Source of the DNA: Minisyncoccota bacterium | GTDB lineage: Bacteria; Patescibacteriota; Minisyncoccia; Phycocordibacterales; UBA1006 | DNA: 64,000 nt | NCBI GenBank assembly: GCA_028697455.1 | Contig: JAQVEZ010000001.1 | Location: 3,902-67,901, forward strand | Direction of reading: 5' to 3' | Notes under the pieces: generated by a model | The model's database searches: none | Seen by the model: only the letters and a program-made list of their open reading frames with translations | Told to the model about the DNA's origin: nothing | Shown: piece by piece, positions 10,684-49,702 of the stretch | How positions within the stretch are numbered: position 1 is the stretch's first letter | Layout: each line of letters begins with the position of its first letter | Position numbers and translations under genes: made by a program

Positions 10684-11232
10684 ATGGATGATTATTCAGG
10701 ACCTAAATTAATTATTAGCCAGTTAGATATTTTTCCTGGACAAGATGTTGTAGACCTTGGTACGGGAGCAGGAGCATATGCTTTTGTATTGGCGGAAAAA
10801 CTTCTTGGAGGGGGAAATAGCTCAAGGGTTTTTGCTATTGATGTTCAAAAGAATCTTCTCGAGAAAATACAGACAGAGGCAGAGTTGAAGGGCTTTTATA
10901 ACCTTAAAACTATTTGGGGAGATATAGAAGCTCATGAAGGAACACGACTTAGAGACAACTCTATTGACTGGGTTTTTTTGGCGAACACCCTTTTTCAGGC
11001 AGAAGATAAAAATGCTCTTCTCAGAGAAGCACTCCGCATTGTGAGACCAGGGGGGAGATTTGTTCTCATTGACTGGAGCTCAGGTTTAGGACAAGGAGCT
11101 ATTGGCCCAAGCTCTGTTCAAGTTATCCCAGAAAATGAGGCAAAGACAATGTGTGAGAATGTAGGGTTTGAGTTTATAAAAACACTCTCGGCAGGAGAAC
11201 ATCATTATTGTCTTGTCTTTAAGAAAAATTAA
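10684..11232 (+). CDS. Class I SAM-dependent methyltransferase
   Basis: Motif I VVDLGTGAGAYAFVLAEK and a downstream acidic-loop motif. An extended -10 (TGCTATACT) lies 6 nt before the ATG. Confidence 0.7.
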   Translation: MDDYSGPKLIISQLDIFPGQDVVDLGTGAGAYAFVLAEKLLGGGNSSRVFAIDVQKNLLEKIQTEAELKGFYNLKTIWGDIEAHEGTRLRDNSIDWVFLANTLFQAEDKNALLREALRIVRPGGRFVLIDWSSGLGQGAIGPSSVQVIPENEAKTMCENVGFEFIKTLSAGEHHYCLVFKKN

Positions 11233-11237
11233 TTTTT

Positions 11238-12596
11238 ATGAAAGAAATTTTAACTATAAAGAATATTATTATTGCTCTTTTTGCTCTTTTTGCAATTGTT
11301 GCTTTTCTTATCTTTTCTGGATTCATTAAAGTGGGGAAATCAGCGCAACAAGCTCGAGGGTCGGTTGTTGTGTGGGGGACGATCCCTTTTTCAGTTATGC
11401 AACCATATATTGATAAAATTCAAGACACGCATCTTACGGTAACGTATTCTGAAAAGAAAGAGGCAACCTATGAGTCAGAACTTATTAATGCTTTTGCTTC
11501 CGGAACAGGGCCTGATTTGTTTATTATGTCCCACGAAGCTATTTTGAGGAATAGTGACAAGGTTTTTGAAGTTCCATATACCTCTTTCCGAAAAGATATC
11601 TACGAGAATTCGTATATTTCGGAAGCTCGTCTTTTTTTGACAGAGACAGGGATACTCGCGTTTCCTCTTTTTGTTGATCCTTTGGTTATGTATTACAATA
11701 AGCCATTGATTGCATCATATTCACCAACCTTTTCTCTTAGACTACCTCAATACTGGTCAGAGTTTCAGGAGTTTGCGCGAGAGGTGACACAATATAACGA
11801 AACGGGGGAGGTTATTATTTCAGCTGTTGGTCTCGGGACTTTTGATAATATTCTTCATGCAAAAGATATTCTTGCAACTCTTTTTATTCAAAATGGAAAT
11901 CAGATTGTTGGAACAAACACCACAACAGGAAAAAAGCAATCTGTTTTGACTTTTAATGAAACGGCTCTTGGCCAGTCAGAAGAAATTGTTAATTTCTATA
12001 CTTCTTTTTCACGCTTTGGTTCAACAAACTATTCTTGGAACGAAGCTCTTCTTGATACCCAAAATTCTTTTATTTCAGGGAATCTTGCCGTGTATTTTGG
12101 ACTTGGAAGTGAGGCTGGAGATATTCGTATGAAAAACCCAAATCTTGATTTTGGAGTAATGCGTTTCCCCCAGAAATGTGATCCTTTCACCTCTGGATGT
12201 AATAATTCTTCTGCATATACTTTCGGTGCAATGACAGGAATTGCCGTAAGCAAACATAGCAAGAATCTTCCCGCAGCCCTTGCCGTTGCTTCAAAAGTTG
12301 CCGGAGGAGATATCGTAAAAGGACTTGCAACTGATTTTCAGGTAGCTCCTGCGCGTAAAGATATCCTCTCTTCACTCCTTCAGGAGAGAGCAGGAGATCC
12401 TCTTAATATTCTTCGCTATGAATCAGCAGTTATTGCGACAGGGTGGTTTGACCCAGATAATCGAGAGACTGAAAATATTTTTTCATCTCTTATTCGAAAT
12501 GTTAATTCTTTGGCATTGAGTTCTCGTCAGGCACTCGCCCAAACTCAAGCAGCACTGAACCTCCTTCTTGATAGGACCATTAACCTCAGAGCATAA
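11238..12596 (+). CDS. Extracellular solute-binding protein (ABC transporter SBP family 1-like), membrane-anchored; no permease partner genes in window
   Basis: N-terminal TM anchor followed by GSVVVWGT...LINAFASGTGPDLFIMSHEAI, typical of SBP_bac_1 N-lobes. Confidence 0.5.
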   Translation: MKEILTIKNIIIALFALFAIVAFLIFSGFIKVGKSAQQARGSVVVWGTIPFSVMQPYIDKIQDTHLTVTYSEKKEATYESELINAFASGTGPDLFIMSHEAILRNSDKVFEVPYTSFRKDIYENSYISEARLFLTETGILAFPLFVDPLVMYYNKPLIASYSPTFSLRLPQYWSEFQEFAREVTQYNETGEVIISAVGLGTFDNILHAKDILATLFIQNGNQIVGTNTTTGKKQSVLTFNETALGQSEEIVNFYTSFSRFGSTNYSWNEALLDTQNSFISGNLAVYFGLGSEAGDIRMKNPNLDFGVMRFPQKCDPFTSGCNNSSAYTFGAMTGIAVSKHSKNLPAALAVASKVAGGDIVKGLATDFQVAPARKDILSSLLQERAGDPLNILRYESAVIATGWFDPDNRETENIFSSLIRNVNSLALSSRQALAQTQAALNLLLDRTINLRA

Positions 12597-12613
12597 TCAT
12601 TTTTATCAAAACT

Positions 12614-12656
12614 TACGGAGCCATTTTAGGGCCGTAAGTTTTTCTTTTGCTGCTTG
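12614..12656 (+). terminator. Hairpin terminator (acttacgg...ccgtaagt followed by a T-run)
   Basis: 9-bp inverted repeat with a 14-nt loop followed by TTTTCTTTT. Confidence 0.45.
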
Positions 12657-12679
12657 TTTCGTGATATACTATTTTTAGT

Positions 12680-13639
12680 ATGAATAAGCGTTTTTTTAGA
12701 TATTTTTTTATCCTTTTTCCCCTTGTTTTCTTTGGTATTTTTCAGTGGTCTCCGTCAGAAGCACAGGAGTCAGCTAATGGTGTTAAGGCTCACTGGGGAA
12801 CAGTAGAGTTACAACAAAATAGCAATGGTAATTATACGTATTCTATTAACAGCTCCGGAAATATCACACGGGAGAGTAGCGATACGGTTTATCTCAATGT
12901 ATCAAAAACCTCTGAACAGAACACCGAAGAAGTTTCTTATTACACTCTTTGTAGCTTTGATGCTTCAGCAGGATTGTCGTTTAGTGTTGCATATCCTGCT
13001 TGTGCCAACCCACAGAGTATTCTCAATGTTCAACCAGGATATATTTATAAAATATATTTCTCTGATGGATTAAATTCTTCAAAAATTATTAATAATCTCG
13101 GTGAAGGACAGGGGATTTTTCAACTTCCTTCTGCTCCTGCGTTCGGAGGAGTACAAGAAAATGAACAAAACCCGTTTGGTGGGTTAGAAGGGAAACCAGG
13201 TGGTGATGGGACAACCCAGGCTGAAGAAGAGCAAAACGACCCGATCACCACCACAACCTCTTCCGAAGGAGAAGGTCCTACTACCGCCACAACAACACAA
13301 GAAAGTGATGGAGGGCTCGTTTCTAAGGAATGCGGGTATAACCTTTCTAATGGAGGAAGGATTTGTGGCTTTTCAGATCTCATTGGTCTTCTTGATAGGA
13401 TTATTCAATTTATCTTTATTCTCGCTATCCCTATTGCAGCTCTTGTCTTTGCTTATGCAGGGTTCCTCTACCTTACAAGTGGGGGAAACACTGACAAACA
13501 CAAGAAGGCGGTTAAGGCGATGACTACCGTGGTCAAAGGGATTCTTGTGGTGATGGTTGCGTGGCTCGCTGTCAAAACTATTTTGGTAAGTCTCGGAGCT
13601 TCGCCCGATTCAGCATGGTTTTGGCTTGATGTTAAATAG
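12680..13639 (+). CDS. Secreted protein: ~200-aa Cys-containing extracellular domain, Thr-rich linker, and C-terminal 2-TM TrbC/VirB2-like pilin module
   Basis: Signal peptide MNKRFFRYFFILFPLVFFGIFQWSPSEA. Linker TTTTSSEGEGPTTATTTQ. The C-terminus (IQFIFILAIPIAALVFAYAGFLYLTSGGNTDKHKKAVKAMTTVVKGILVVMVAWLAVKTIL) has the same 2-TM plus basic-loop architecture as the five small paralogs downstream. Confidence 0.55.
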   Translation: MNKRFFRYFFILFPLVFFGIFQWSPSEAQESANGVKAHWGTVELQQNSNGNYTYSINSSGNITRESSDTVYLNVSKTSEQNTEEVSYYTLCSFDASAGLSFSVAYPACANPQSILNVQPGYIYKIYFSDGLNSSKIINNLGEGQGIFQLPSAPAFGGVQENEQNPFGGLEGKPGGDGTTQAEEEQNDPITTTTSSEGEGPTTATTTQESDGGLVSKECGYNLSNGGRICGFSDLIGLLDRIIQFIFILAIPIAALVFAYAGFLYLTSGGNTDKHKKAVKAMTTVVKGILVVMVAWLAVKTILVSLGASPDSAWFWLDVK

Positions 13640-13755
13640 TATATTTATTGCAGATATTTTTGTTTTTATGTTAAAATAAGGATAACTTCTTGTGATAGTT
13701 CTTGATCAAGAAGGTAATAATCGATTATTATTTAATTTTTTAAGTACGAGTTTTT

Positions 13756-14118
13756 ATGAAAAAATTTATTGTTGGAGGAGCAATTTTCTTGACACCTTTT
13801 TTGGCTTTTGCTCAAACAACCTTTGGAACTATCTTAGGAACCATCGGAGGTTTTATTAATGCCCTTATTCCTATTCTCATTGCAGCAGGTCTTGCATTCT
13901 TCATTTATGGAGTTGTTCGATATGTTATTGCAAAAGACGGAGATGATAAGAAAAAAGCAACTGGAATTATTATCAACGGAATCATAGGACTCTTTGTTAT
14001 CCTTTCTATTTGGGGGCTTGTTGGAGTTATTCAGTCAACCTTTGGTATTGGAACAGGAGCAACCCTTAATCAAGATCAAATCCCAGGAGTATGTCTACCA
14101 GGACAACCAGGATGTTAA
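13756..14118 (+). CDS. Small secreted 2-TM pilin-like protein (TrbC/VirB2-like family)
   Basis: Signal peptide MKKFIVGGAIFLTPFLAFA; TM1 ALIPILIAAGLAFFIYGVV; basic loop KDGDDKKKATG; TM2 IIINGIIGLFVILSIWGLVGV. Confidence 0.55.
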   Translation: MKKFIVGGAIFLTPFLAFAQTTFGTILGTIGGFINALIPILIAAGLAFFIYGVVRYVIAKDGDDKKKATGIIINGIIGLFVILSIWGLVGVIQSTFGIGTGATLNQDQIPGVCLPGQPGC

Positions 14119-14160
14119 TCTTATAATAAAATCCTCTCTTTTGAGAGGTTTTTACTTTGC

Positions 14161-14541
14161 TTGATACGTGATATTATAGGGCTATCTATGAAACAGCTTC
14201 TTGAACAATTTACTTCATATTTTACTGTGCCCTATGCGGAAGCAGCCATGTCAGACCTTCATTCTTTTTTAGGAAGACTTAATGATCAGATCATTAACCC
14301 TCTCATCGCTCTTGCCTTTGCTGTTGCTCTTGTTTATTTTGTGACAGGTCTCTTTACTTTTTTTAAAAAAGAAAGTGGATCAGATTCACGAGAAAAAGGG
14401 AAGCGACATATCGTGTGGGGAGTGATTGGTATGGCAGTAATGATTTCTGTTTTTGGGATTATTTCTTTTCTTACAAATACTCTGGGAGTTGGGAATGTTG
14501 ATCCTTCTTCTACAGGAGATATTTCAAGTCTCTTTAATTAA
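14161..14541 (+). CDS. Small 2-TM pilin-like protein paralog (TrbC/VirB2-like)
   Basis: TM1 INPLIALAFAVALVYFVTGLF, basic loop KKESGSDSREKGKRH, TM2 IVWGVIGMAVMISVFGII. Same topology as 13756-14118. Confidence 0.5.
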   Translation: MIRDIIGLSMKQLLEQFTSYFTVPYAEAAMSDLHSFLGRLNDQIINPLIALAFAVALVYFVTGLFTFFKKESGSDSREKGKRHIVWGVIGMAVMISVFGIISFLTNTLGVGNVDPSSTGDISSLFN

Positions 14542-14543
14542 AA

Positions 14544-14578
14544 AAAGCGAGTCACTTAATACGTGCTCGCTTTGTTCT
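14544..14578. terminator. Bidirectional hairpin terminator between convergent genes
   Basis: aagcgag-(14-nt loop)-ctcgctt flanked by A-run and T-run. Confidence 0.45.
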
Positions 14579-14582
14579 TGGA

Positions 14583-15827
14583 TTATTTCTTTTCGAGACT
14601 CTCTTCGAGCTTCTTAATCATCCCTTCTTGATCAGAAGAGGTTTTAAGAAGTTTTGTAAACTCCTTTAAAGACTCTGCTATTTCAGGAGGAATAAGCCCA
14701 TCCCCATTTGGAGTTCCTATAGAGATGATCTTTTCTTCCTGATAAGCATCTGAGAAAAGCTCTGCCACCATCGTCCTTCGGGTCGCTGAGATTTTACCCT
14801 CAGGGTCGATTACCTCAAAAAGTTCCATCTGGGCTTGGTAAATTTTTTGCTTTACCTCCCCAACTTGGGCTATTTTCTTTGCCTCAACTTCTGCTGCAGC
14901 AAAACCTTCAATTTTGGAAGCTTCTGCATCTCCTTCTGCCTTGACAATCCTTGCAGTTTTTTCAACTCCTGCAAGAGCTTTTCTCTTGAGGGAATCTTGG
15001 ACATCCTTTGCGACAAAGAAGGTCTTGATATAGAATCTCCCAGCAATCCCCGCAAAAGGAAATCTAAAAAGAACGCCTGTTTGGTTTTTGTCTTCAAAAA
15101 AGTCAAAACCATTCGAAGTTCTCTCATAGTCTCCACGGGAACCACCTACAGAGACAAAGTCCTCAAGACATTGAAAGTAACTTTTTTCAATTCTGTTTGA
15201 GGCATCCTTGTCTCTAAAAATTTCTTCAAGGGTGTAGTCATCGAAGGTCTTATTTAGAGACTTCAATGACACCTCATGAATAATTTTTTTAAGACCATCT
15301 TCTCCTACGGAAAGAAGGAAGTCAGCGTACTTCCAAGGATCCTCTATGAAATAAGTGAAACCATTGGTACCGTCGACATGGACGCCATCAGAAGTCTTTA
15401 CCTTCTCAAAGGGGTATTCGAGAGGTGTCGGTGTTTTGGTGAACACCCATACATCGAATATCTCAGGGAAGAAGGGAACCTTTGTCAGATTCCTATAGTC
15501 TCCCTCTTTGAGAATCCATGGAAATCTCTGGCTTCCCTTGAGCTCCCCAAGAATTGTAATGATCCCAAAGGAACCGCCTTCAATTTCAAGATAATCTCCA
15601 GCAGAGAAGCTTATCAGAAATAGAACTCCGATGATGCCAAAAATGAACAAAGGATTCATCCCGAAGGCAATCCAGAAGAGGAGACCCAATATTGAGCCTA
15701 CAATTCCAGAAATGATCAGGTGGATCTGAATATTCCACCACAGCACCTTGGAATTCCACAGTGCTGGACTGAGCCCCCGTGCCCTCCCAAAAAGGTTGGG
15801 CAAGAGGTTTTCGAATATTTTTCTCAT
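14583..15827 (-). CDS. SPFH/band-7 (stomatin/prohibitin-like) domain membrane protein
   Basis: N-terminal TMs (IHLIISGIVGSILGLLFWIAF...). C-terminal Ala/Glu-rich segment KDVQDSLKRKALAGVEKTARIVKAEGDAEASKIEGFAAAEVEAKKIAQVGEV typical of SPFH C-terminal coiled coils. The start was moved to the internal MRKIFENL to avoid overlapping the gene upstream; the ORF track extends to 15965. Confidence 0.5.
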   Translation of the reverse strand: MRKIFENLLPNLFGRARGLSPALWNSKVLWWNIQIHLIISGIVGSILGLLFWIAFGMNPLFIFGIIGVLFLISFSAGDYLEIEGGSFGIITILGELKGSQRFPWILKEGDYRNLTKVPFFPEIFDVWVFTKTPTPLEYPFEKVKTSDGVHVDGTNGFTYFIEDPWKYADFLLSVGEDGLKKIIHEVSLKSLNKTFDDYTLEEIFRDKDASNRIEKSYFQCLEDFVSVGGSRGDYERTSNGFDFFEDKNQTGVLFRFPFAGIAGRFYIKTFFVAKDVQDSLKRKALAGVEKTARIVKAEGDAEASKIEGFAAAEVEAKKIAQVGEVKQKIYQAQMELFEVIDPEGKISATRRTMVAELFSDAYQEEKIISIGTPNGDGLIPPEIAESLKEFTKLLKTSSDQEGMIKKLEESLEKK

Positions 15828-15846
15828 TTTTCGTTTTTTAAATATT

Positions 15847-16284
15847 CTACTTTGTGAGAATTCTTTGTTCTCCATACCCGCATCTGATTTCAACCGGTGC
15901 AGTTTCACTGCCCCATACCCAGACACCGGTATCCTCATAGCTGAGAACGTGTCCGTCCGCTTCAAATGGCTTACCCTGTTTTTTGTTTTTGTCAGAGTAA
16001 ATTATCATATTGAGGGTTTCACTTGGGGTATAAAAATCTACCCTTCGTGAGCCCTTTTTTGATCCAAACGGCACAAACTGCCAATCTCCTTTTTGGAGGA
16101 GAACCATGGTAACCATCTCGGAGGAGGCTACAGATCTTTTCTTTTCAGAAGAGTTTCCTCCCCAAAAATAGAAAACCAGGAGTGCCAGCCCAATAAGAAC
16201 CAGTACGATCCATTTTAACGGAAACCCTGCCGTTCCCTTGGAAGAAGTGTTTGCACCGCTTCCTTTTTTAGCTGCTTTTTTCAT
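15847..16284 (-). CDS. Hypothetical membrane-anchored protein
   Basis: Basic N-terminus, then one TM (IVLVLIGLALLVFYFW) and a ~100-aa extracytoplasmic domain. Confidence 0.4.
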   Translation of the reverse strand: MKKAAKKGSGANTSSKGTAGFPLKWIVLVLIGLALLVFYFWGGNSSEKKRSVASSEMVTMVLLQKGDWQFVPFGSKKGSRRVDFYTPSETLNMIIYSDKNKKQGKPFEADGHVLSYEDTGVWVWGSETAPVEIRCGYGEQRILTK

Positions 16285-16382
16285 AGCTCTTTAATTTTTA
16301 AATGTTCACTTTGAATACTATCACATTTTGAAGCTATTGTCAATTTATAAGAGTTCTTAAAGCTGTGATATACTTTTAAGGT

Positions 16383-16808
16383 ATGAATAAATATTTTCTT
16401 GCAAAACTTTACTCATTTTTAATTTTTGCACTTTCTTTTGGCGGAGGGTTAAAAGGTGTTTTTGCTCAGGGGAAATCAGGGACTGATACCCCACCAGGGC
16501 AATCAGGATCTGACACTCCAGAAGGAGTTCCTGGGATGTCGATCAAGCTCGATAACCCTCTTGGAACAACTGACAGTATTCCTATGTTGATCAAGAGACT
16601 CCTTGATGTTGTTTTGACCATTGGGGTTCCTTTAATAGCCTTGGCTATTATTTATGCAGGTTTTCAACTCGTTACTGCTCAAGGGAATACAGAAAAACTT
16701 AAGGTAGCCAAGAGAAACCTTGTCTACGTTGTTATTGGGGCGGGAATTCTTCTTGCAGCTTATGCTATCTCTGAAGTAATCGTTGGGACCGTCACCGCTA
16801 TTCGTTAG
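16383..16808 (+). CDS. Secreted 2-TM pilin-like protein (TrbC/VirB2-like)
   Basis: Signal peptide MNKYFLAKLYSFLIFALSFGGGLKGVFA, Pro/Gly/Thr-rich spacer, TM1 VVLTIGVPLIALAIIYAGFQLV, basic loop QGNTEKLKVAKRN, TM2 LVYVVIGAGILLAAYAI. The start context (tgatatact..aaggtATGAATAAATA) is shared with the two BNR-protein genes. Confidence 0.55.
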   Translation: MNKYFLAKLYSFLIFALSFGGGLKGVFAQGKSGTDTPPGQSGSDTPEGVPGMSIKLDNPLGTTDSIPMLIKRLLDVVLTIGVPLIALAIIYAGFQLVTAQGNTEKLKVAKRNLVYVVIGAGILLAAYAISEVIVGTVTAIR

Positions 16809-16824
16809 CCACACATTAGGAATT

Positions 16825-17175
16825 ATGAACATTTTTAGAAATAAATGGATACTTACTTTGGGGGCTCTTTTGTTACCAAGTTTTGCTCTTGCTGCAACGA
16901 CCTTTAAAAATATTATTTTTTCAACGCTTGATATTATTGGAAATTATTTAATGCCAGTTTTGTTTGCACTTGCCTTGGCTTATTTTATTTGGGGAGTAGC
17001 TGATTTTATTCTATCAGCAAACAATCAAGCCGAACGAGAAGCAGGGAAGACGAGAATTATTTGGGGAATTGTGGCTCTTTTTGCAATGGTTGCGTACCTT
17101 GGACTTGTAAATATTTTTAGTTCAGGGTTCTTTAACACCAGTTCGACCTTACTTCCTCAATTGTTTACCTCTTAA
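16825..17175 (+). CDS. Small 2-TM pilin-like protein paralog
   Basis: AGGA RBS before the internal ATG at ~16825 (MNIFRNKWILTLGALLLPSFALA signal), TM1 MPVLFALALAYFIWGVADFIL, loop NQAEREAGKTR, TM2 IIWGIVALFAMVAYLGLV. Confidence 0.5.
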   Translation: MNIFRNKWILTLGALLLPSFALAATTFKNIIFSTLDIIGNYLMPVLFALALAYFIWGVADFILSANNQAEREAGKTRIIWGIVALFAMVAYLGLVNIFSSGFFNTSSTLLPQLFTS

Positions 17176-17178
17176 ACT

Positions 17179-17529
17179 ATGACATCAAATCTCAAAAAAA
17201 ATATCATTGCGCTTGGTGCAAGTACGTTCCCAGTTTTTTCCTTTGCTCAGGTAGGGCAAAATATAAAATCTTTTCTCTCTTCGATAGGAACTCTTGTTAA
17301 TGCGTATATTATTCCTCTTTTGATTTCACTTGCCCTCCTCTATACCATTCTCTCGGGGGTGAGATTGATTCAGGAATCTGATTCTGCAAAGAAAGGGGAG
17401 AGAAGAACTCAACTATTGTGGGGAATTATAGGACTCTTTATTATCCTTTCTATTTGGGGAATTCTTGCGGTATTTTCAAATACTTTTACTGAAGTCTTTA
17501 TGGGGGGGACCATACAACCTGGAAAATAG
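17179..17529 (+). CDS. Small 2-TM pilin-like protein paralog
   Basis: Signal peptide, TM1 IIPLLISLALLYTILSGV, loop QESDSAKKGERRTQ, TM2 LLWGIIGLFIILSIWGILAV. Very similar to 13756-14118 (shared motif GLFxILSIWG). Confidence 0.55.
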   Translation: MTSNLKKNIIALGASTFPVFSFAQVGQNIKSFLSSIGTLVNAYIIPLLISLALLYTILSGVRLIQESDSAKKGERRTQLLWGIIGLFIILSIWGILAVFSNTFTEVFMGGTIQPGK

Positions 17530-17543
17530 TTTTTTAAAAAACA

Positions 17544-17577
17544 AAACTCGTCTTTGCAACGAGTTTTGTTTTTGATA
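17544..17577 (+). terminator. Rho-independent terminator ending the pilin-like gene array
   Basis: aaaactcgt-ctttgca-acgagtttt followed by GTTTTTG. Confidence 0.5.
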
Positions 17578-17585
17578 CTTTCTTT

Positions 17586-17670
17586 TGGTGCCCAAGAGAG
17601 GACTTGAACCTCCACGCGTTGCCGCACTGGTTCCTAAGACCAGCGTGTCTACCGATTCCACCACCTGGGC
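17586..17670 (-). tRNA. tRNA-Leu (anticodon TAG), long variable arm, CCA encoded
   Basis: Read on the minus strand: GCCCAGGTGGTGGAATCGGTAGACACGCTGGTCTTAGGAACCAGTGCGGCAACGCGTGGAGGTTCAAGTCCTCTCTTGGGCACCA. Cloverleaf with anticodon loop CTTAGGA and T-loop TTCAAGT. Confidence 0.85.
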
Positions 17671-17880
17671 AGGTGTGTTTACCCATCTGTATAAAAGAAT
17701 AGTTTTTTTATTTCAATACACATGCAGGCGTGTCTACCGCTTACTATTCTTTGCACCACCTGGGCAGGTGTGTTTACCCATCTGTATAAAAGAATAGTTT
17801 TTTTATTTCGATACACACGCAGGCGTGTCTACCGCTTACTATTCTTTGCACCACCTGGGCAGGTGTGTATCCCGAGCTGT
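17671..17880. repeat. Tandem direct repeat, 95-bp unit x ~2.2, starting at the 5' boundary of tRNA-Leu(TAG); each unit carries a tRNA 5'-fragment-like segment
   Basis: Unit aggtgtgtttacccatctgtataaaagaatagtttttttatttc[a/g]atacaca[t/c]gcaggcgtgtctaccgcttactattctttgcaccacctgggc at 17671-17765 and 17766-17860, plus a partial third copy. Two SNPs between units. Each unit contains ccacctgggcagg and gtgtctaccg, which match the tRNA acceptor/D-arm on the minus strand. Confidence 0.85.
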
Positions 17881-17944
17881 ACTTAACAAGATCTTTAGAT
17901 TCTGCAAGCCCCGGATTTATTACGTATTGATGATTCATTACGTG

Positions 17945-18017
17945 TCCGCTTGGAAGGATTCGAACCTTCGACCGTCTGGTTAAGAGCCAGCTGCTCTACC
18001 GACTGAGCTACAAGCGG
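17945..18017 (-). tRNA. tRNA-Lys (anticodon CTT)
   Basis: Minus strand: CCGCTTGTAGCTCAGTCGGTAGAGCAGCTGGCTCTTAACCAGACGGTCGAAGGTTCGAATCCTTCCAAGCGGA. Acceptor CCGCTTG/CAAGCGG. No CCA encoded. Confidence 0.85.
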
Positions 18018-18061
18018 GAACAAAAGAAAGTATATAGGAATGATATTTTTTCGCAAGAAAA

Positions 18062-18144
18062 GTGCCGAGAGCGGGAATTGAACCCGCACGCCCGAAAGCA
18101 AGGGATTTTAAGTCCCTCGTGTCTACCGATTCCACCACCTCGGC
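18062..18144 (-). tRNA. tRNA-Leu (anticodon TAA), long variable arm
   Basis: Minus strand: GCCGAGGTGGTGGAATCGGTAGACACGAGGGACTTAAAATCCCTTGCTTTCGGGCGTGCGGGTTCAATTCCCGCTCTCGGCA. Anticodon loop CTTAAAA. Confidence 0.85.
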
Positions 18145-18240
18145 AATGAGAAGATAGTACCATAATTTAGGCTAATATCCAATATTGTCTTTTGAGTTAA
18201 ACAAGCTTTTTAAAATGGATTTTATTTTCTGATATTTTTG

Positions 18241-18312
18241 AGGCATAGGCGGGAATCGAACCCGCGCATGGCGGTTTTGCAGACCGCAGCGTTTCCACTT
18301 CGCCACTATGCC
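18241..18312 (-). tRNA. tRNA-Cys (anticodon GCA)
   Basis: Minus strand: GGCATAGTGGCGAAGTGGAAACGCTGCGGTCTGCAAAACCGCCATGCGCGGGTTCGATTCCCGCCTATGCCT. Discriminator U as expected for Cys. Confidence 0.85.
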
Positions 18313-26447: not shown

Positions 26448-27764
26448 ATGAATAAATATATTTTTACATCACTACTATCGTTATTTGTGATAGTAGGTTT
26501 TATAAGTTTTATTAATCCACACACAGCTTCTGCCCAACCTCTTGAATGGGAAGAGTTTGATCTCAGCCCCAATGAATATAATTCTATTGCCTATGGAAAT
26601 GGTGTGTATGTTGCTGTAGGAAGCGGAACCCCCATGTATTCCTCTGATGGGAAGAATTGGAATATGTCAATTCTTCCAAACGCAGCATCACTATCCTCAG
26701 TTGTTTATGGAGATGGGAAGTTTGTTGCGGTGGGGAGAACAGGTTCCCCACTTATGCAAAATATGAATCGGATTATTTACCTTTCTTCTGACGGGCTTTC
26801 CTGGGATATTGCTTCATCAATCCCCGATAAGTTAAATGCACAAAGCAATCTTCTCAGTATTTTTTATATGTATGATAATCTCAACGCTAAAGATTTATTT
26901 GTAGCCTTCGGGCAGGACTACTCTACAGGTGCTGGATCTACTAGCTTACCTTATATTGTTTATTCTTCTGATGGGGACGCCTGGCTCAGATCTACTCTGC
27001 CAATAGGTTCTGACGGAAGCCCGTCCGATGCAGTTGTAGGATATAACGAAAATGGAGAGCTTGTTCTTTTATCCTTTGTATATGGATATGGTATTGGTGC
27101 TCCTTCTTATTATATTATGTCTATTGACGGTGGAGCAACTTGGGTTTACCCGGACTCCCTTACAGGGCTTGATGATTTTCAGGGGCTAAGCATGAGTTAT
27201 CTCAACGGAAAATTTTTCTACGTGGGACATTCTTATGACGATGAAGAAGGTAAGGATCTGTTCTCTGTGAGATCCTCTATGAATGGACTTGATTGGGATA
27301 AAGGATCAATAGAGTTTCCTGAAGAATTCTTATCGGGTAGTAGGGAGACATCTGCTTATGGAGATAACACGTATCTTTTTTTCCTTTCCCCATCACTTGG
27401 TTACACACCCCCTCTCTATTCCCCCAACGGAGAAACCTGGGAATTCTTTACCCCAAGTTTTGATAAGAGTAGTTATGTATCTCCTATCCAATTAATTTAT
27501 GCAGAAGATTCATTTATGCTCCTTGGTCGAAATGAATCAGGAGGATATGTTATTGCTTTTCCCAAATCCTTGAATGATTCATCAGAAATACCTTCTTCAA
27601 AATCCTCAAGTATTTTCGGAACTCGATTCTGTACAGCAGGAGTTACTACCTTCTGTAGACCTCAGAATGGATTTACCAACAATAATCCATTAGTAAATAT
27701 TTACACTGAACTCTTGGGGCTTTATCAGCAACTTTTGAATACGATTCAAAATGAAAACAGCTAA
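26448..27764 (+). CDS. Secreted BNR/Asp-box repeat (beta-propeller-like) protein with a conserved C-terminal domain
   Basis: Signal peptide. Asp-box motifs SSDGKNW, SSDGLSW, SSDGDAW, SIDGGATW. Repeated YG.G.FVAVG blades. The C-terminal ~50 aa (SSIFGTRFCTAGVTTFCRPQNGFTNNNPLVNIYTELLGLYQQLL) is shared with 4728-5279. Confidence 0.65.
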   Translation: MNKYIFTSLLSLFVIVGFISFINPHTASAQPLEWEEFDLSPNEYNSIAYGNGVYVAVGSGTPMYSSDGKNWNMSILPNAASLSSVVYGDGKFVAVGRTGSPLMQNMNRIIYLSSDGLSWDIASSIPDKLNAQSNLLSIFYMYDNLNAKDLFVAFGQDYSTGAGSTSLPYIVYSSDGDAWLRSTLPIGSDGSPSDAVVGYNENGELVLLSFVYGYGIGAPSYYIMSIDGGATWVYPDSLTGLDDFQGLSMSYLNGKFFYVGHSYDDEEGKDLFSVRSSMNGLDWDKGSIEFPEEFLSGSRETSAYGDNTYLFFLSPSLGYTPPLYSPNGETWEFFTPSFDKSSYVSPIQLIYAEDSFMLLGRNESGGYVIAFPKSLNDSSEIPSSKSSSIFGTRFCTAGVTTFCRPQNGFTNNNPLVNIYTELLGLYQQLLNTIQNENS

Positions 27765-44328: not shown

Positions 44329-44374
44329 TATACGAGTATAGCACTTTCTGTCTGGAGTAAAACAAAAACCTATT

Positions 44375-45088
44375 TTAAAAAATAGGTTCTGTTTCAATAG
44401 ACGGGCTTACTGCTGGGGTTTCTTCGGTGGTGAGATCGAGACTAAATTCTACCCCTAAAAAGTCGTCAATTAAATTTTCTTTTATATTATTTGAGAACTT
44501 TTTTGAAGCATATTGAATGCCCCAAAGAGTTCTGTCAATTTTTGTCTTTCCCGAGATATTTAAATCATTTTGATTATATGACACATGAACAGGAAGAGAA
44601 ATCTCTTGAGTGACATCTTTGATAGTAAGCTCCCCGTAGAGAATGCCGTCTGTTATTTTTTGTATTTCAAGATGAGACTCTCCATAATGATCAGTATCGA
44701 AGAAGTCAACACCTTTGAGATGATCATCAAGAGAGTTAAACCCAGCTCCGGTTGCTGTGGAGGTTGTTGTGATTGAGTTCATGTCAAAAATTACATCCCC
44801 CGTGACTTCATTGTTTTTAATTTTTAATTGAGCATTTTTAATTTGCAATTCTCCTTTGTTAATAAAATTATCTAAGAGGGGATTTTTTCCGTCCCAGTAA
44901 ATTACAGCACCTTCTTTGGCTGTATAAATCCCATCAAGAAGAGTAGTAGAAGAACCTAAATAGTTTTCTTCGTTGATGACCTTAAAATCATTTGCCGTTT
45001 TTGTTTTTGGTTTTTCATTTTGCACAAAAGTATAAATGAGCACCATCGCTACCGCAAGAAGAATAATAATCTTTGTTTTTTTATTCAT
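44375..45088 (-). CDS. YceI-like domain protein (secreted)
   Basis: Signal/TM; DHLKGVDFFDTDHYGESHLEI...GELTIKDVTQEISLPV matches the YceI core. Confidence 0.6.
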   Translation of the reverse strand: MNKKTKIIILLAVAMVLIYTFVQNEKPKTKTANDFKVINEENYLGSSTTLLDGIYTAKEGAVIYWDGKNPLLDNFINKGELQIKNAQLKIKNNEVTGDVIFDMNSITTTSTATGAGFNSLDDHLKGVDFFDTDHYGESHLEIQKITDGILYGELTIKDVTQEISLPVHVSYNQNDLNISGKTKIDRTLWGIQYASKKFSNNIKENLIDDFLGVEFSLDLTTEETPAVSPSIETEPIF

Positions 45089-45105: not shown

Positions 45106-45633
45106 TTATGCTGATGCTACAATTTCAATATGAATATCAAAATTTACTTCATCACTAACGACAACCCCACCTGTCTCAAGGGTTGCATTCCACTTAAGAC
45201 CAAAGTCTTGTCGGTTAATTTTCCCAGTAATATCAAAACCGGCTATTTTTGTTCCTTCCATGTTTGTTCCAACTCCCTCAGATTCGGCTACAAGGGTAAT
45301 ATTTTGGGTAACACCATTTATGCTAAGGTCTCCTGTGATGAGGTATTCCCCGTCATTATTTTTTTTGAAAGAGTTAGATGAAAATGTTAATACTGGATGT
45401 TGTTCAGCATTGAAAAAATCAGGCGATCGTAGATGATTGTCTCGCATCTCATTATTAGTATCAATACTTGATACTTGTGCTTCGAATGTTACTTGTGTAT
45501 TTTCAAAATCTTCTTCGGGGGAGCTGAGTGTCCCTGAGAATTCTCTAAAAACTCCTTTTACGGTTGAGACCATAAGATGTTTAACCTTAAAACCTATTGT
45601 TGAATGAACAGGATCTATTTTCCAAATTGTCAT
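45106..45633 (-). CDS. YceI family protein
   Basis: MTIWKIDPVHSTIGFKVKHLMVSTVKGVF..F.G...RDNHLRSPDFFNAEQHPVLTF...GDLSINGVTQNITL: a canonical YceI domain with no signal peptide. Confidence 0.8.
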   Translation of the reverse strand: MTIWKIDPVHSTIGFKVKHLMVSTVKGVFREFSGTLSSPEEDFENTQVTFEAQVSSIDTNNEMRDNHLRSPDFFNAEQHPVLTFSSNSFKKNNDGEYLITGDLSINGVTQNITLVAESEGVGTNMEGTKIAGFDITGKINRQDFGLKWNATLETGGVVVSDEVNFDIHIEIVASA

Positions 45634-47456: not shown

Positions 47457-47972
47457 ATGAAAACTTTAATTTATATTATTCTTATTGTTGGAGTTATTTT
47501 AATTGCTCTCCAGCTTTTTAACAAAAACGAGGTAACAGCACCCTCTGACTCAGAAAACGTTGAATTTTTGTCTGGAACAGTTACTGGAACAGTTAACTAC
47601 CTCCCAAGAATCGCACTTCCAGAAGGAAGTATTATTAACATTGCTCTTCTCCAAGAAGGAGATGCAAATCTCGCAACGGTTTCAAGCACCGAAATTGTTA
47701 CTAAGGGAGAAAATGTTCCTGTACCATTTGCCCTTGATTATTTTGTTGATGATCTTGATGAAAATGCAGGGTATTACATTAAAGCGTCTATCTATTCTGA
47801 CGGAGGAGTTCTTGACTGGGAAGGGGATTCTGGAAATGTTATCACAAAAGGAAATCCAGTTGATGGGGTAGAGATTATGGTTTCTCAAGTACCAGCACCT
47901 GAAACTGCTAGCGAAACTAATGGGCAAGCCCCAGAAGCCACAGAAGGAGAAATTACTTCAGCTGTTGAATAA
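47457..47972 (+). CDS. YbaY-like secreted/lipo-protein
   Basis: Signal peptide; GTVTGTVNYLPRIALPEGSIINIALLQEGDAN...VPVPFALDY resembles YbaY-family lipoproteins. Confidence 0.4.
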   Translation: MKTLIYIILIVGVILIALQLFNKNEVTAPSDSENVEFLSGTVTGTVNYLPRIALPEGSIINIALLQEGDANLATVSSTEIVTKGENVPVPFALDYFVDDLDENAGYYIKASIYSDGGVLDWEGDSGNVITKGNPVDGVEIMVSQVPAPETASETNGQAPEATEGEITSAVE

Positions 47973-48472: not shown

Positions 48473-49117
48473 TTATTTTGTAAGGGTGATATCAATTTTT
48501 ACGGTAAAATTATCGTCAATCATTTGGTTTGCCAGATTATCAAAGAATTTTCCTGACCCGAATTTTACATCCCAAAGAGTTCGGTCAAGTTGTGTTGTTG
48601 CAATGATGTGAAGCTCATTTTCCCCTGAAAGAGTAACAGGAAATTGTACAGGCTGAGTAATTCCCTTTATCGTGAGGTCTCCTATCAATATTCCGTTAAT
48701 AACTTCTGTAACGGTGAAATAAGCTTCTGGATATTTTTCAACGCTAAAAAAATCGTCTGACTTTAAATGGTTTGCAAGCATATCATTTCCTCGTCCCATT
48801 CCTGTTGAGCCAACGTGGATACTTTTCATATCAAAGGTAAAACTACCTGATGTAATTTGATTATCTGCAACCTTAAGAGAACCTTTGGTGATATTGAGTA
48901 CTCCCGAATCGAGATAGCCTTCTATAAGTGGTCGCCGTCCTTCCCAAGAGAGTGTTGTCGGCTCCTTAAGTGCGTATGTCCCATTTTCAGCTTGAAAATC
49001 AACAATGCCTGAAGTCATTTCAGGAGAGGTAGGATTTTCTGATTTTTTCTTGGAAAATACATTAAGAAGTAAGATTACAATAATGATAAGTGCTAAAAAG
49101 ATTAAAATTTTTTTCAT
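48473..49117 (-). CDS. YceI-like domain protein (secreted), third paralog
   Basis: Signal/TM; NHLKSDDFFSVEKYPEAYFTVTEV..GDLTIKGITQPVQFPV. Domain order matches 44375-45088. Confidence 0.65.
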   Translation of the reverse strand: MKKILIFLALIIIVILLLNVFSKKKSENPTSPEMTSGIVDFQAENGTYALKEPTTLSWEGRRPLIEGYLDSGVLNITKGSLKVADNQITSGSFTFDMKSIHVGSTGMGRGNDMLANHLKSDDFFSVEKYPEAYFTVTEVINGILIGDLTIKGITQPVQFPVTLSGENELHIIATTQLDRTLWDVKFGSGKFFDNLANQMIDDNFTVKIDITLTK

Positions 49118-49216: not shown

Positions 49217-49702
49217 TCATACTTTTTTTTGTAATTCTGGGAGAAGATAATCCTTGCCGGTAATAACCTGGCGGCAATTGAAAGCTCCACATTCACATTT
49301 CCATTTTGAAATTTTATTTTCATCTGTTTCCCAGAGTATATAATCCGCAGTGAGCTCTTCTCCTATTTTTACATCTCTCATTGTTTCAAGTCTAAAAGCA
49401 TCTTTCATCCAAACATTCGGATTGCATGAATGATTTATAAAATAAGCATCACTTTCACCTCTATCTTCTATAGAAAATAAATTATCATCAAATTGCATAA
49501 CCAACATACCTCTATTTTTGGCAATATCGGCTTGTTTCTTGTTTACGTAATTTCCACCCCAAATAATTACAACCGTTCCTTTATTTATTGGTTGTGAAGC
49601 AAATAATCCCTTACCACGTTTTTTTGTTTCGCAAATTTCTATTTTAGGATTTACCCAATCCTCTCTCGGCGGTTTAATTTTTGATTTAAACAAACTAAAC
49701 AT
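49217..49702 (-). CDS. SET-domain protein (putative protein-lysine methyltransferase)
   Basis: FINHSCNPNV (SET NHSCxPN motif), ELTADY (Tyr motif), and a C-terminal Cys cluster CECGAFNC (post-SET-like). Confidence 0.65.
   Translation of the reverse strand: MFSLFKSKIKPPREDWVNPKIEICETKKRGKGLFASQPINKGTVVIIWGGNYVNKKQADIAKNRGMLVMQFDDNLFSIEDRGESDAYFINHSCNPNVWMKDAFRLETMRDVKIGEELTADYILWETDENKISKWKCECGAFNCRQVITGKDYLLPELQKKV

Follow-up and report, generated by a model that had tools for sequence, protein, structure and literature searches.

Six VirB2/TrbC-like pilin paralogs, two of which carry modular, strain-variable heads among strains, in a conserved chromosomal slot of a Paceibacteria bacterium

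Six pilin genes at the locus

We analyzed a stretch of 64,000 nucleotides (64 kb; the window) of contig JAQVEZ010000001.1 from a Minisyncoccota bacterium, in which six short pilin-like genes surround a gene pair on the opposite strand. A reading of the window made from its letters alone (the sequence-only reading) had described this cluster as six paralogs of TrbC/VirB2-like pilins, the pilin type of type IV secretion systems (T4SS), and had placed it in a member of the Candidate Phyla Radiation (CPR). All six open reading frames (ORFs) were confirmed on the + strand at the coordinates reported there, and are called p1 to p6 here; the start of p3 is given as revised below.

12680..13639, + strand: p1, head-bearing pilin of 319 aa (PF18895 30.1 bits; AlphaFold model; NCBI name 'pilin')
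13756..14118, + strand: p2, plain pilin of 120 aa (PF18895 39.0 bits; hairpin model)
14188..14541, + strand: p3, pilin of 117 aa; its leader is atypical and weakly hydrophobic, and ends in AEAA (PF18895 28.4 bits; TrbC 18.0 bits)
16383..16808, + strand: p4, pilin of 141 aa with the strongest likeness to TrbC/VirB2 and a short N-terminal spacer rich in G, T and P (PF18895 37.2 bits; TrbC 24.6 bits)
16825..17175, + strand: p5, plain pilin of 116 aa, alternatively 105 aa (PF18895 32.4 bits; gene calls)
17179..17529, + strand: p6, plain pilin of 116 aa (PF18895 28.1 bits)

The start of p3 is most likely the ATG at 14188, in agreement with the NCBI and Logan gene calls, rather than the TTG at 14161, which gives 126 aa. 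The start of p5 was ambiguous between 16825 and 16858, the latter being the gene call in relatives. The NCBI locus tags of p3 and p6 are PHC89_00115 and PHC89_00140. The p1 product was 100% identical to the NCBI protein "MAG: pilin [Candidatus Pacebacteria bacterium]" (MAG, metagenome-assembled genome), which agrees with the assignment to the CPR.

All six products scored above the Pfam gathering cutoff of PF18895 (T4SS_pilin; 26.6 bits), and a hidden Markov model (HMM) built from p1 to p6 found no seventh copy among the 698 stop-to-stop ORFs of the window (next best E = 0.39). The cluster is therefore a discrete six-member set, not a group of chance hydrophobic ORFs. The TrbC/VirB2 family PF04956 (cutoff 27.9 bits) was matched below its cutoff by p4 and p3, and was not matched by the other four. 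When orthologs of p4 were searched, nine of nine matched PF04956 at E <= 0.01 (best 8.7e-08). From these profile matches, the p4 orthogroup is likely homologous to classical TrbC/VirB2, but strict membership of the window proteins in PF04956 does not follow. The mycoplasma pilin-like family NF045849, from integrative and conjugative elements (ICE), was matched by all six at 16-35 bits, under its curated cutoff of 40. The profile searches thus bear out the earlier description of six T4SS pilin paralogs, fully through PF18895 and, as to PF04956, through the p4 orthologs but not through the window proteins themselves.

Hydropathy analysis showed two long hydrophobic segments in each of p1 to p6. 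In the AlphaFold model, p2 formed a helix-loop-helix hairpin (helices 24-58 and 62-96; predicted local distance difference test score, pLDDT, 81-95), and p1 ended in a C-terminal hairpin (helices 231-266 and 271-304). The loops between the helices, as counted from the sequences, were net positive in all six pilins. Five of the six leaders were canonical, with a basic n-region, a hydrophobic core and an AxA site, and the alanines of this site (A17 and A19 in p2) were near-invariant across a 71-member family alignment. The exception was p3, whose leader contained two acidic residues and reached a maximum 10-aa hydropathy of 0.72, against 1.57-2.87 in the other five; its orthologs keep the AxA site within a YxLIPxAxA motif. 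The architecture proposed earlier, a cleavable signal peptide followed by a transmembrane helix, a basic loop and a second transmembrane helix, therefore stood for the hairpins, the loops and five leaders, but p3 is without a canonical cleavable signal. The proposed shared motifs fared likewise: GLFVILSIWGLVGV in p2 and GLFIILSIWGILAV in p6 were verified, but WG(I/V)(I/V) at the start of the second helix was limited to p3, p5 and p6.

We rejected a type IV pilus (PilA-type) assignment, because none of the six matched the N_methyl/T4P families of Pfam, the leaders end in AxA, and no Peptidase_A24 was found in the window. The absence of a prepilin peptidase, to which the sequence-only reading had appealed, is irrelevant here, because that enzyme belongs to type IV pili and not to VirB2-type pilins.

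Two details of the C-termini were also seen. The p2 protein ends in ...GVCLPGQPGC, with two cysteines in the extracytoplasmic tail, and p4 orthologs stop right after helix 2 in a conserved ...AIRG; these may be features of processing or disulfide formation.

Fixed orthogroups across relatives

The pilins were compared with those of related loci, which carry L numbers here. Over the last 95 residues, identity to the pilin at the same position in relatives with 74% GyrA identity was 53-64% for p1, 51-73% for p2, 51-58% for p3, 62% for p4, 41-57% for p5 and 42-44% for p6. Pilins at different positions were 18-47% identical to those of the same relatives, and the paralogs within the window were 19-42% identical to one another. 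Gene order and the chromosomal slot were the same in these relatives. These comparisons place each of the six pilins in a fixed one-to-one orthogroup; the paralogy is therefore old, and every copy has been retained. Such a gene-for-gene conserved set argues for six different roles, as opposed to a recent amplification or antigenic variation.

The most conserved paralog was p2, with 100% and 95% identity in sister strains and 71% in L007, and p2 is therefore likely to be the major subunit.

Modular heads on p1 and p4

The p1 protein was composed of a signal peptide, a beta-sandwich head (residues ~33-150), a disordered T/E/G-rich linker, a double-Cys loop with the conserved pattern CGYNL...GGRICGF, and the PF18895 hairpin (residues 231-304). 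The beta-sandwich was modelled by AlphaFold with pLDDT of 80-94. This N-terminal part of p1, a strain-variable module, had been overlooked in the sequence-only reading.

Between strains with 99% GyrA identity, p2, p3, p5 and p6 were 95-100% identical. In p1, the pilin domain was identical at 87 of 87 residues between such strains, the head at 78 of 118 and the linker at 34 of 65. The p1 of sister strains carries an extra distal module (module A) that is absent from the window strain; module A was identical at 28 of 146 residues between two sister strains, whose next module (head B) was identical at 110 of 113. The p4 protein of the window has no head, whereas p4 in sister strains has a head of ~128 aa that is paralogous to the p1 head of the window (57/107 identical). 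The DNA of the window and of the sister strains was colinear, with two clean indels exactly at the N-termini of p1 and p4, the latter at 16397-16478 against L001 and L004. Pilin domains were 91-100% identical between strains while the heads were swapped or lost. Across loci, the N-terminal head modules measured 100-500 aa.

The pilin has an extracytoplasmic N-terminus, and heads attached to it would thus be displayed on the outside. The most variable module is the distal one, and this position fits a recognition role. The heads, exchanged or lost between nearly identical strains on two of the subunits, are candidate determinants of host specificity and allow a prediction of the exposed end of the pilin.

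The array occupies a core chromosomal slot

The slot has the order GyrA, methyltransferase, solute-binding protein (SBP), pilins, tRNAs (in some cases), RbfA and IF2. The module was found in this same slot in the sister strains L001-L005 and, at the species level, in a dozen relatives whose GyrA is 61-75% identical and whose records are titled Paceibacteria, Parcubacteria or Patescibacteria. Because of this shared slot, we regard the array as a vertically inherited core module, neither accessory nor mobile. The window itself is ordinary core chromosome, with S5-L15-SecY, EF-G, GyrA, IF2, RbfA, ClpB, LeuRS, FtsZ/FtsA, MreB, PBP and MurD among its genes. The GC content of the array was 0.39-0.41, within the range of 0.34-0.41 across the window, and a tRNA cluster (17586-18312) adjoins the array. 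The word "island", which had been used for the cluster in the sense of accessory or mobile DNA, is thus not appropriate: every relative examined, including those with GyrA identity as low as 61%, has the array at the same fixed position in the core genome.

Two records with the typical Paceibacteria module, L015 and L017, are titled 'Crocinitomicaceae bacterium' and 'Candidatus Saccharibacteria bacterium' MAGs. These titles are probably binning or labelling errors.

A chimeric contig had been considered as a possible source of error. An independent assembly from another sequencing run (L006) was 100% identical over 9.6 kb, showing that the region is not chimeric, and the same layout recurs in many genomes.

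Virtually all ORFs of the window with about 112 aa or more were scanned against Pfam, and no VirB4, VirD4, VirB6, VirB8, relaxase, coupling protein, integrase or prepilin peptidase was found. The earlier statement that the window holds no VirB4, VirD4, relaxase or prepilin peptidase was therefore correct. The suggestion drawn from it, that the array may encode a surface filament rather than a conjugation system, cannot be derived from the lack of VirB4 within 64 kb: among 1,948 VirB4-containing assemblies of Patescibacteria, a pilin gene was near virB4 in 1,135 and not near it in 813 (PMC12102498). In Paceibacteria, virB4 typically lies near dnaA/dnaN according to the same study.

An SPFH protein and a bitopic protein lie between the pilin genes

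Between p3 and p4, two genes are encoded on the opposite strand.

14583..15824, - strand: divergent SPFH/Band_7 membrane protein of 413 aa with an N-terminal hydrophobic hairpin (PF01145 29.8 bits, cutoff 23.6)
15847..16284, - strand: bitopic protein of 145 aa with a basic N-terminus, one transmembrane helix and a beta-rich C-terminal domain of ~95 aa

The presence of an SPFH/band-7 protein and a small bitopic protein on the opposite strand, noted before, was thus upheld by the Pfam match and by the single transmembrane segment of the 145-aa protein. The most likely start of the SPFH protein is the internal ATG at 15824, as in relatives, and not the start of the 460-aa ORF; with this start, the apparent overlap with the bitopic gene disappears. 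In the 413-aa form, the hydrophobic stretch covers residues 31-79. Relatives of the SPFH protein were few, with 13 cluster representatives at E <= 0.001 among 1.84 billion, and the protein belongs to a very small and fast-evolving subfamily.

The bitopic gene lies upstream of the SPFH gene with a gap of 22 nt, and the two genes likely form one operon. In nfeD-SPFH operons, a small membrane protein gene is likewise found just upstream in the same orientation. We rejected an NfeD identity for the bitopic protein, however, because only the gene order resembles that of nfeD-SPFH: the bitopic protein had no match in Pfam, NCBIfam or PDB and no NfeD similarity at E <= 1, and a profile of its orthologs found nothing relevant in PDB. 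The SPFH protein resembles the flotillins FloA/FloT, HflK/C and the stomatin of stomatin-NfeD pairs in its above-cutoff Band_7 domain and N-terminal membrane anchor, but differs from these scaffolds in its very divergent sequence and in an upstream partner without NfeD similarity.

Two layouts were found among the related loci. In the split layout, the p3-p4 interval of every complete locus holds, on the opposite strand, an N-terminally anchored protein of 354-421 aa and a bitopic protein of 139-180 aa. The larger protein was demonstrably SPFH in the window, L011, L012, L013, L015 and L017, and transitively in L007. In the contiguous layout, the pilin genes adjoin one another and the reverse-strand genes come after them; in L019, Band_7 paralogs scoring 43.8 and 34.6 bits, and one more scoring 16.5 bits, come after six pilins. 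The SPFH linkage has thus survived rearrangement, which suggests a functional tie between the SPFH protein and the array. The loci come from a single clade, so that inherited synteny is also possible. Flotillin-assisted assembly of secretion machines provides a precedent for such a tie. No description of an SPFH-pilin partnership in Patescibacteria was found in our literature search.

The reverse-strand genes of L019 (Parcubacteria Gr01-1014_17) had an arrangement of their own. At 12230-17661 of that locus, three SPFH paralogs are interleaved with two paralogous polytopic membrane proteins of 228 and 275 aa (mutual E = 7e-60), and the 275-aa protein showed a faint VirB8 match (E = 0.054).

A methyltransferase and a solute-binding protein precede the array

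Two further genes, which the sequence-only reading had overlooked, are linked to the array on its upstream side.

10684..11232, + strand: SAM-dependent methyltransferase of 182 aa (Pfam Ubie_methyltran and Methyltransf_11/25/31 on the identical gene of L006)
11238..12596, + strand: membrane-anchored orphan solute-binding protein SBP_bac_1 of 452 aa (PF01547 58.7 bits)

A methyltransferase followed by an N-terminally anchored SBP was found directly upstream of p1 in all related loci examined. The stop codon of the methyltransferase gene overlaps the SBP start in L020, and the SBP and p1 genes overlap or are separated by 10 bp or less in L007, L011, L012, L017, L019, L020 and L021. Pfam scans of the window found no ABC permease or ATPase for the SBP. 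The SPFH scaffold and the orphan SBP, both of which travel with the array, are suggested partners for the storage or assembly of pilins and for uptake.

In L022, a membrane methyltransferase of the PEMT/ICMT family is also present in the methyltransferase-SBP slot.

Comparison with known systems

Arrays of this type are already known, and the gene already bears the NCBI name 'pilin', so that the novelty implied by the sequence-only reading was not borne out. Quinonero-Coronel et al. (2025, PMC12102498) described 441 VirB2-like arrays of 2-11 genes in 383 Patescibacteria assemblies. Their arrays and ours share the families PF18895/PF04956, tandem divergent paralogs (mean identity of 25% there, 19-42% here), a chromosomal location and the lack of a relaxase. 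In contrast, no virB4 lies within the 64 kb analyzed here, and head-bearing pilins, an SPFH partner, linkage to the methyltransferase-SBP pair and one-to-one orthology were not described in that study. PF18895 has also been described as the domain that dominates protein clusters specific to freshwater.

The closest functional case is Southlakia epibionticum, in which six such divergent pilins are essential for epibiotic growth on the host (PMC10633639, PMC12857230). The T4SS locus of its strain ML1 is SEML1_0006-0019 (Wang et al. 2023, PMC10633639; reviewed in PMC12857230), and the essentiality observed there is the only functional evidence for arrays of this kind. ML1 belongs to Saccharimonadia and its pilin genes are inside the T4SS gene cluster, whereas the array here is from Paceibacteria and is detached from such a cluster; no SPFH, band 7, flotillin or head-domain fusion was reported in ML1.

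The pilins TrbC of RP4, VirB2 of Ti and TraA of F share with the present proteins a leader, two hydrophobic helices, a short basic loop and the outside location of both termini. The window proteins differ from these classical pilins in lying under the PF04956 cutoff, in their monoderm host, the six co-resident paralogs, the large fused N-terminal domains and the lack of adjacent VirB machinery. Profile and fold comparisons with solved pilins gave no match, but a helical hairpin discriminates poorly in such searches. The Mbov_0395 family (NF045849) is alike in being a monoderm ICE pilin-like protein that matches all six, but the matches are under the cutoff and the array has no ICE context.

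What is modestly new in this locus is the head-bearing, module-swapping pilins, the fixed set of six orthogroups, the SPFH/bitopic partner and the linkage to the methyltransferase-SBP pair, none of which we found mentioned in the literature searched.

Proposed function and alternatives

We consider it probable, with moderate confidence, that the array is a core module of this Paceibacteria bacterium which encodes six non-redundant VirB2/TrbC-like pilins of the Patescibacteria T4SS and acts through a filament or conduit. Starting from the family membership, the hairpin topology, the fixed orthogroups, the modular variable heads and the conserved neighbors, we infer the following mechanism. Each pilin would be exported and its leader cut at the conserved AxA site by signal peptidase I. 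Once in the membrane, it would take the form of a helical hairpin whose two termini lie outside and whose basic loop is cytoplasmic. From this pool, subunits would be recruited by a VirB4-type machine, encoded at another place in the genome, and assembled into an extracellular filament or conduit in contact with the host cell. Solved F-type pili have both termini on the outer face, with the basic loop lining the lumen. The plain pilins would form the shaft, and p1, together with p4 in sister strains, would show Ig-like beta-sandwich modules on the outside or the tip of the structure, where quick strain-to-strain replacement of modules may tune the recognition of hosts or surfaces. The SPFH protein and its bitopic partner may be a membrane scaffold with a role in organization, storage or quality control, acting on the pilin pool or at the site of assembly, and the anchored SBP may cooperate with the module at the cell surface.

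Several observations weigh against this explanation. A T4SS pilus has never been observed in any Patescibacterium, and a FEMS review goes no further than a 'potential to elaborate conjugative pili'. VirB4, VirB6 and VirB3 were all absent within the 64-kb window. Profile searches of PDB with the pilin family and the p4 family gave only noise without a match to solved pilins, and Foldseek with the p2 model found nothing below E 0.76, the best pilin being archaeal conjugative 8dft at E = 3.1, although a bare hairpin is too simple to discriminate. The set is not always complete, since L016 and L018 have p1-p3 only, followed by DnaE. The SPFH partner was not detectable by iterative HMM and pairwise searches in the middle protein of L014 and L021, nor could it be assigned in the contiguous locus L020, and the Band_7 score of 22.9 bits in L022, also of the contiguous layout, was borderline, just under the cutoff. 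In the window, the SBP gene and p1 are separated by 84 bp that contain a terminator-like hairpin and a -10-like element.

A bolder version of the filament explanation is tentative, and we think it rather unlikely as a whole. It holds that the array is a self-contained, ancient host-contact module of Paceibacteria apart from virB4, in which the six subunits would form a heteromeric filament, p1 and p4 would dock swappable Ig-like modules that set host range at strain level, a dedicated and fast-evolving SPFH cage with its bitopic partner would store or feed pilins at the membrane, and the anchored SBP would serve in sensing or uptake. If this version were true, T4SS biology would gain two novelties, the SPFH-pilin partnership and pilins fused to display domains.

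The six proteins might instead never polymerize and be small membrane subunits of a T4SS translocon or uptake conduit which, together with the SBP and the SPFH protein, takes up host material. This is unlikely in our judgment, but it agrees with the absence of an observed CPR pilus and with the presence of the methyltransferase-SBP pair upstream in all loci, the SBP gene overlapping or nearly abutting the first pilin gene in most of them. The role of the saccharibacterial T4SS has been called 'completely unknown', with uptake of nutrients or DNA being proposed (PMC11665869), and classical VirB2 is needed for substrate transfer independently of pilus formation. On the other hand, the strain-swapped N-terminal heads, with their 100-500 aa, resemble exposed display or recognition domains and not channel parts, the family is homologous to the pilus-forming TrbC/VirB2, and no permease or ATPase gene lies beside the SBP gene. 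Much less probable is a recent tandem amplification giving interchangeable antigenic or phase variants, as proposed for the VirB2 paralogs of Bartonella and Anaplasma. The low identity among the paralogs and their tandem arrangement would suit it, and the analogy to antigenic variation was raised in PMC12102498; the one-to-one positional orthologs at 74% GyrA identity, the 95-100% conservation of plain pilins between strains, the confinement of variation to the p1 and p4 head modules, and the lack of any intra-array repeats or recombination cassettes seen all speak against it. The remnant of an integrated conjugative or mobile element, that is, a true genomic island, is the explanation we find hardest to credit. 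It is suggested by the adjoining tRNA cluster, by the typical occurrence of pilin genes in conjugative elements, and by the weak matches of all six to the mycoplasma ICE family, but it is countered by the same slot between GyrA-methyltransferase-SBP and RbfA-IF2 in every relative, by the absence of integrase, relaxase and coupling protein in the window, by a GC content like that of the window, and by flanking core genes that are colinear at the DNA level.

The T4SS is essential in the one species of Patescibacteria tested, and the present locus leaves the general picture of its role unchanged. If confirmed, the orthogroups, the heads and the SPFH and SBP partners would offer useful targets in the small number of CPR-host systems that can be grown in culture.

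Transcription signals around the array

The following nucleic-acid elements were identified around the array.

12608..12642, + strand: terminator-like hairpin with T-run between the SBP gene and p1 (-20.6 kcal/mol, z = -2.3)
12661..12670, + strand: GTGATATACT, extended -10-like element ending 10 nt before the p1 ATG
14133..14148, both strands: small GC hairpin between p2 and p3 with T-runs on both strands, a possible attenuator
14544..14573, both strands: bidirectional terminator hairpin where the p3 and SPFH genes converge (z = -3.5 on +, -5.0 on -)
16315..16343, - strand: promoter-like site for the bitopic-SPFH genes, TTGACA, 17 nt, TAGTAT, with TG (consensus scan; divergent intergenic region)
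16365..16374, + strand: GTGATATACT, -10-like element ending 9 nt before the p4 ATG
17537..17573, + strand: strong intrinsic terminator, 15-bp stem with T-run, 3' of p6 (z = -4.0)

Hairpins with T-runs thus bound the array on both sides (12608-12642 and 17537-17573), as had been claimed. The sequence GTGATATACT occurred exactly at 12661, 16365 and 25842, the last before tRNA-Tyr, and with one mismatch at 44335, 49156 and 49966; in total, 7 matches were counted against 2.4 expected. We considered and rejected the possibility that it is a regulatory motif specific to the module, because it also precedes a tRNA gene and its one-mismatch copies lie before other genes. It is probably the general extended -10 element of the organism, judged by its positions, and would act as a promoter element. 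The spacing of 9-10 nt to the start codons suggests that the p1 and p4 mRNAs are leaderless or near-leaderless.

Downstream of the array, a 95-bp tandem repeat was found at 17656-17896, with two full copies (97% identity) and a partial third. Its start lies within the 5' end of tRNA-Leu(tag), and the duplicated DNA comprises this 5' end and the region upstream of it.

Other features of the window

At 43-1185, ribosomal protein S5 is unusually long (231 aa) and is directly followed by L15, with no L30 gene between them. The absence of L30 is a CPR trait, with which this arrangement is consistent.

Three paralogs with a YceI-like domain lie within 5 kb (44375-45088, 45106-45633 and 48473-49117). 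Genes for a phage-holin-family protein with four transmembrane segments (PF04020; 36990-37328), a YscW-like lipoprotein domain (47457-47972) and a SET-domain protein (49217-49702) were found among the housekeeping genes. Beside tRNA-Tyr, the gene at 26448-27764 encodes a protein of 438 aa with weak DUF6242 and BNR-repeat-like matches, which is possibly a secreted beta-propeller.

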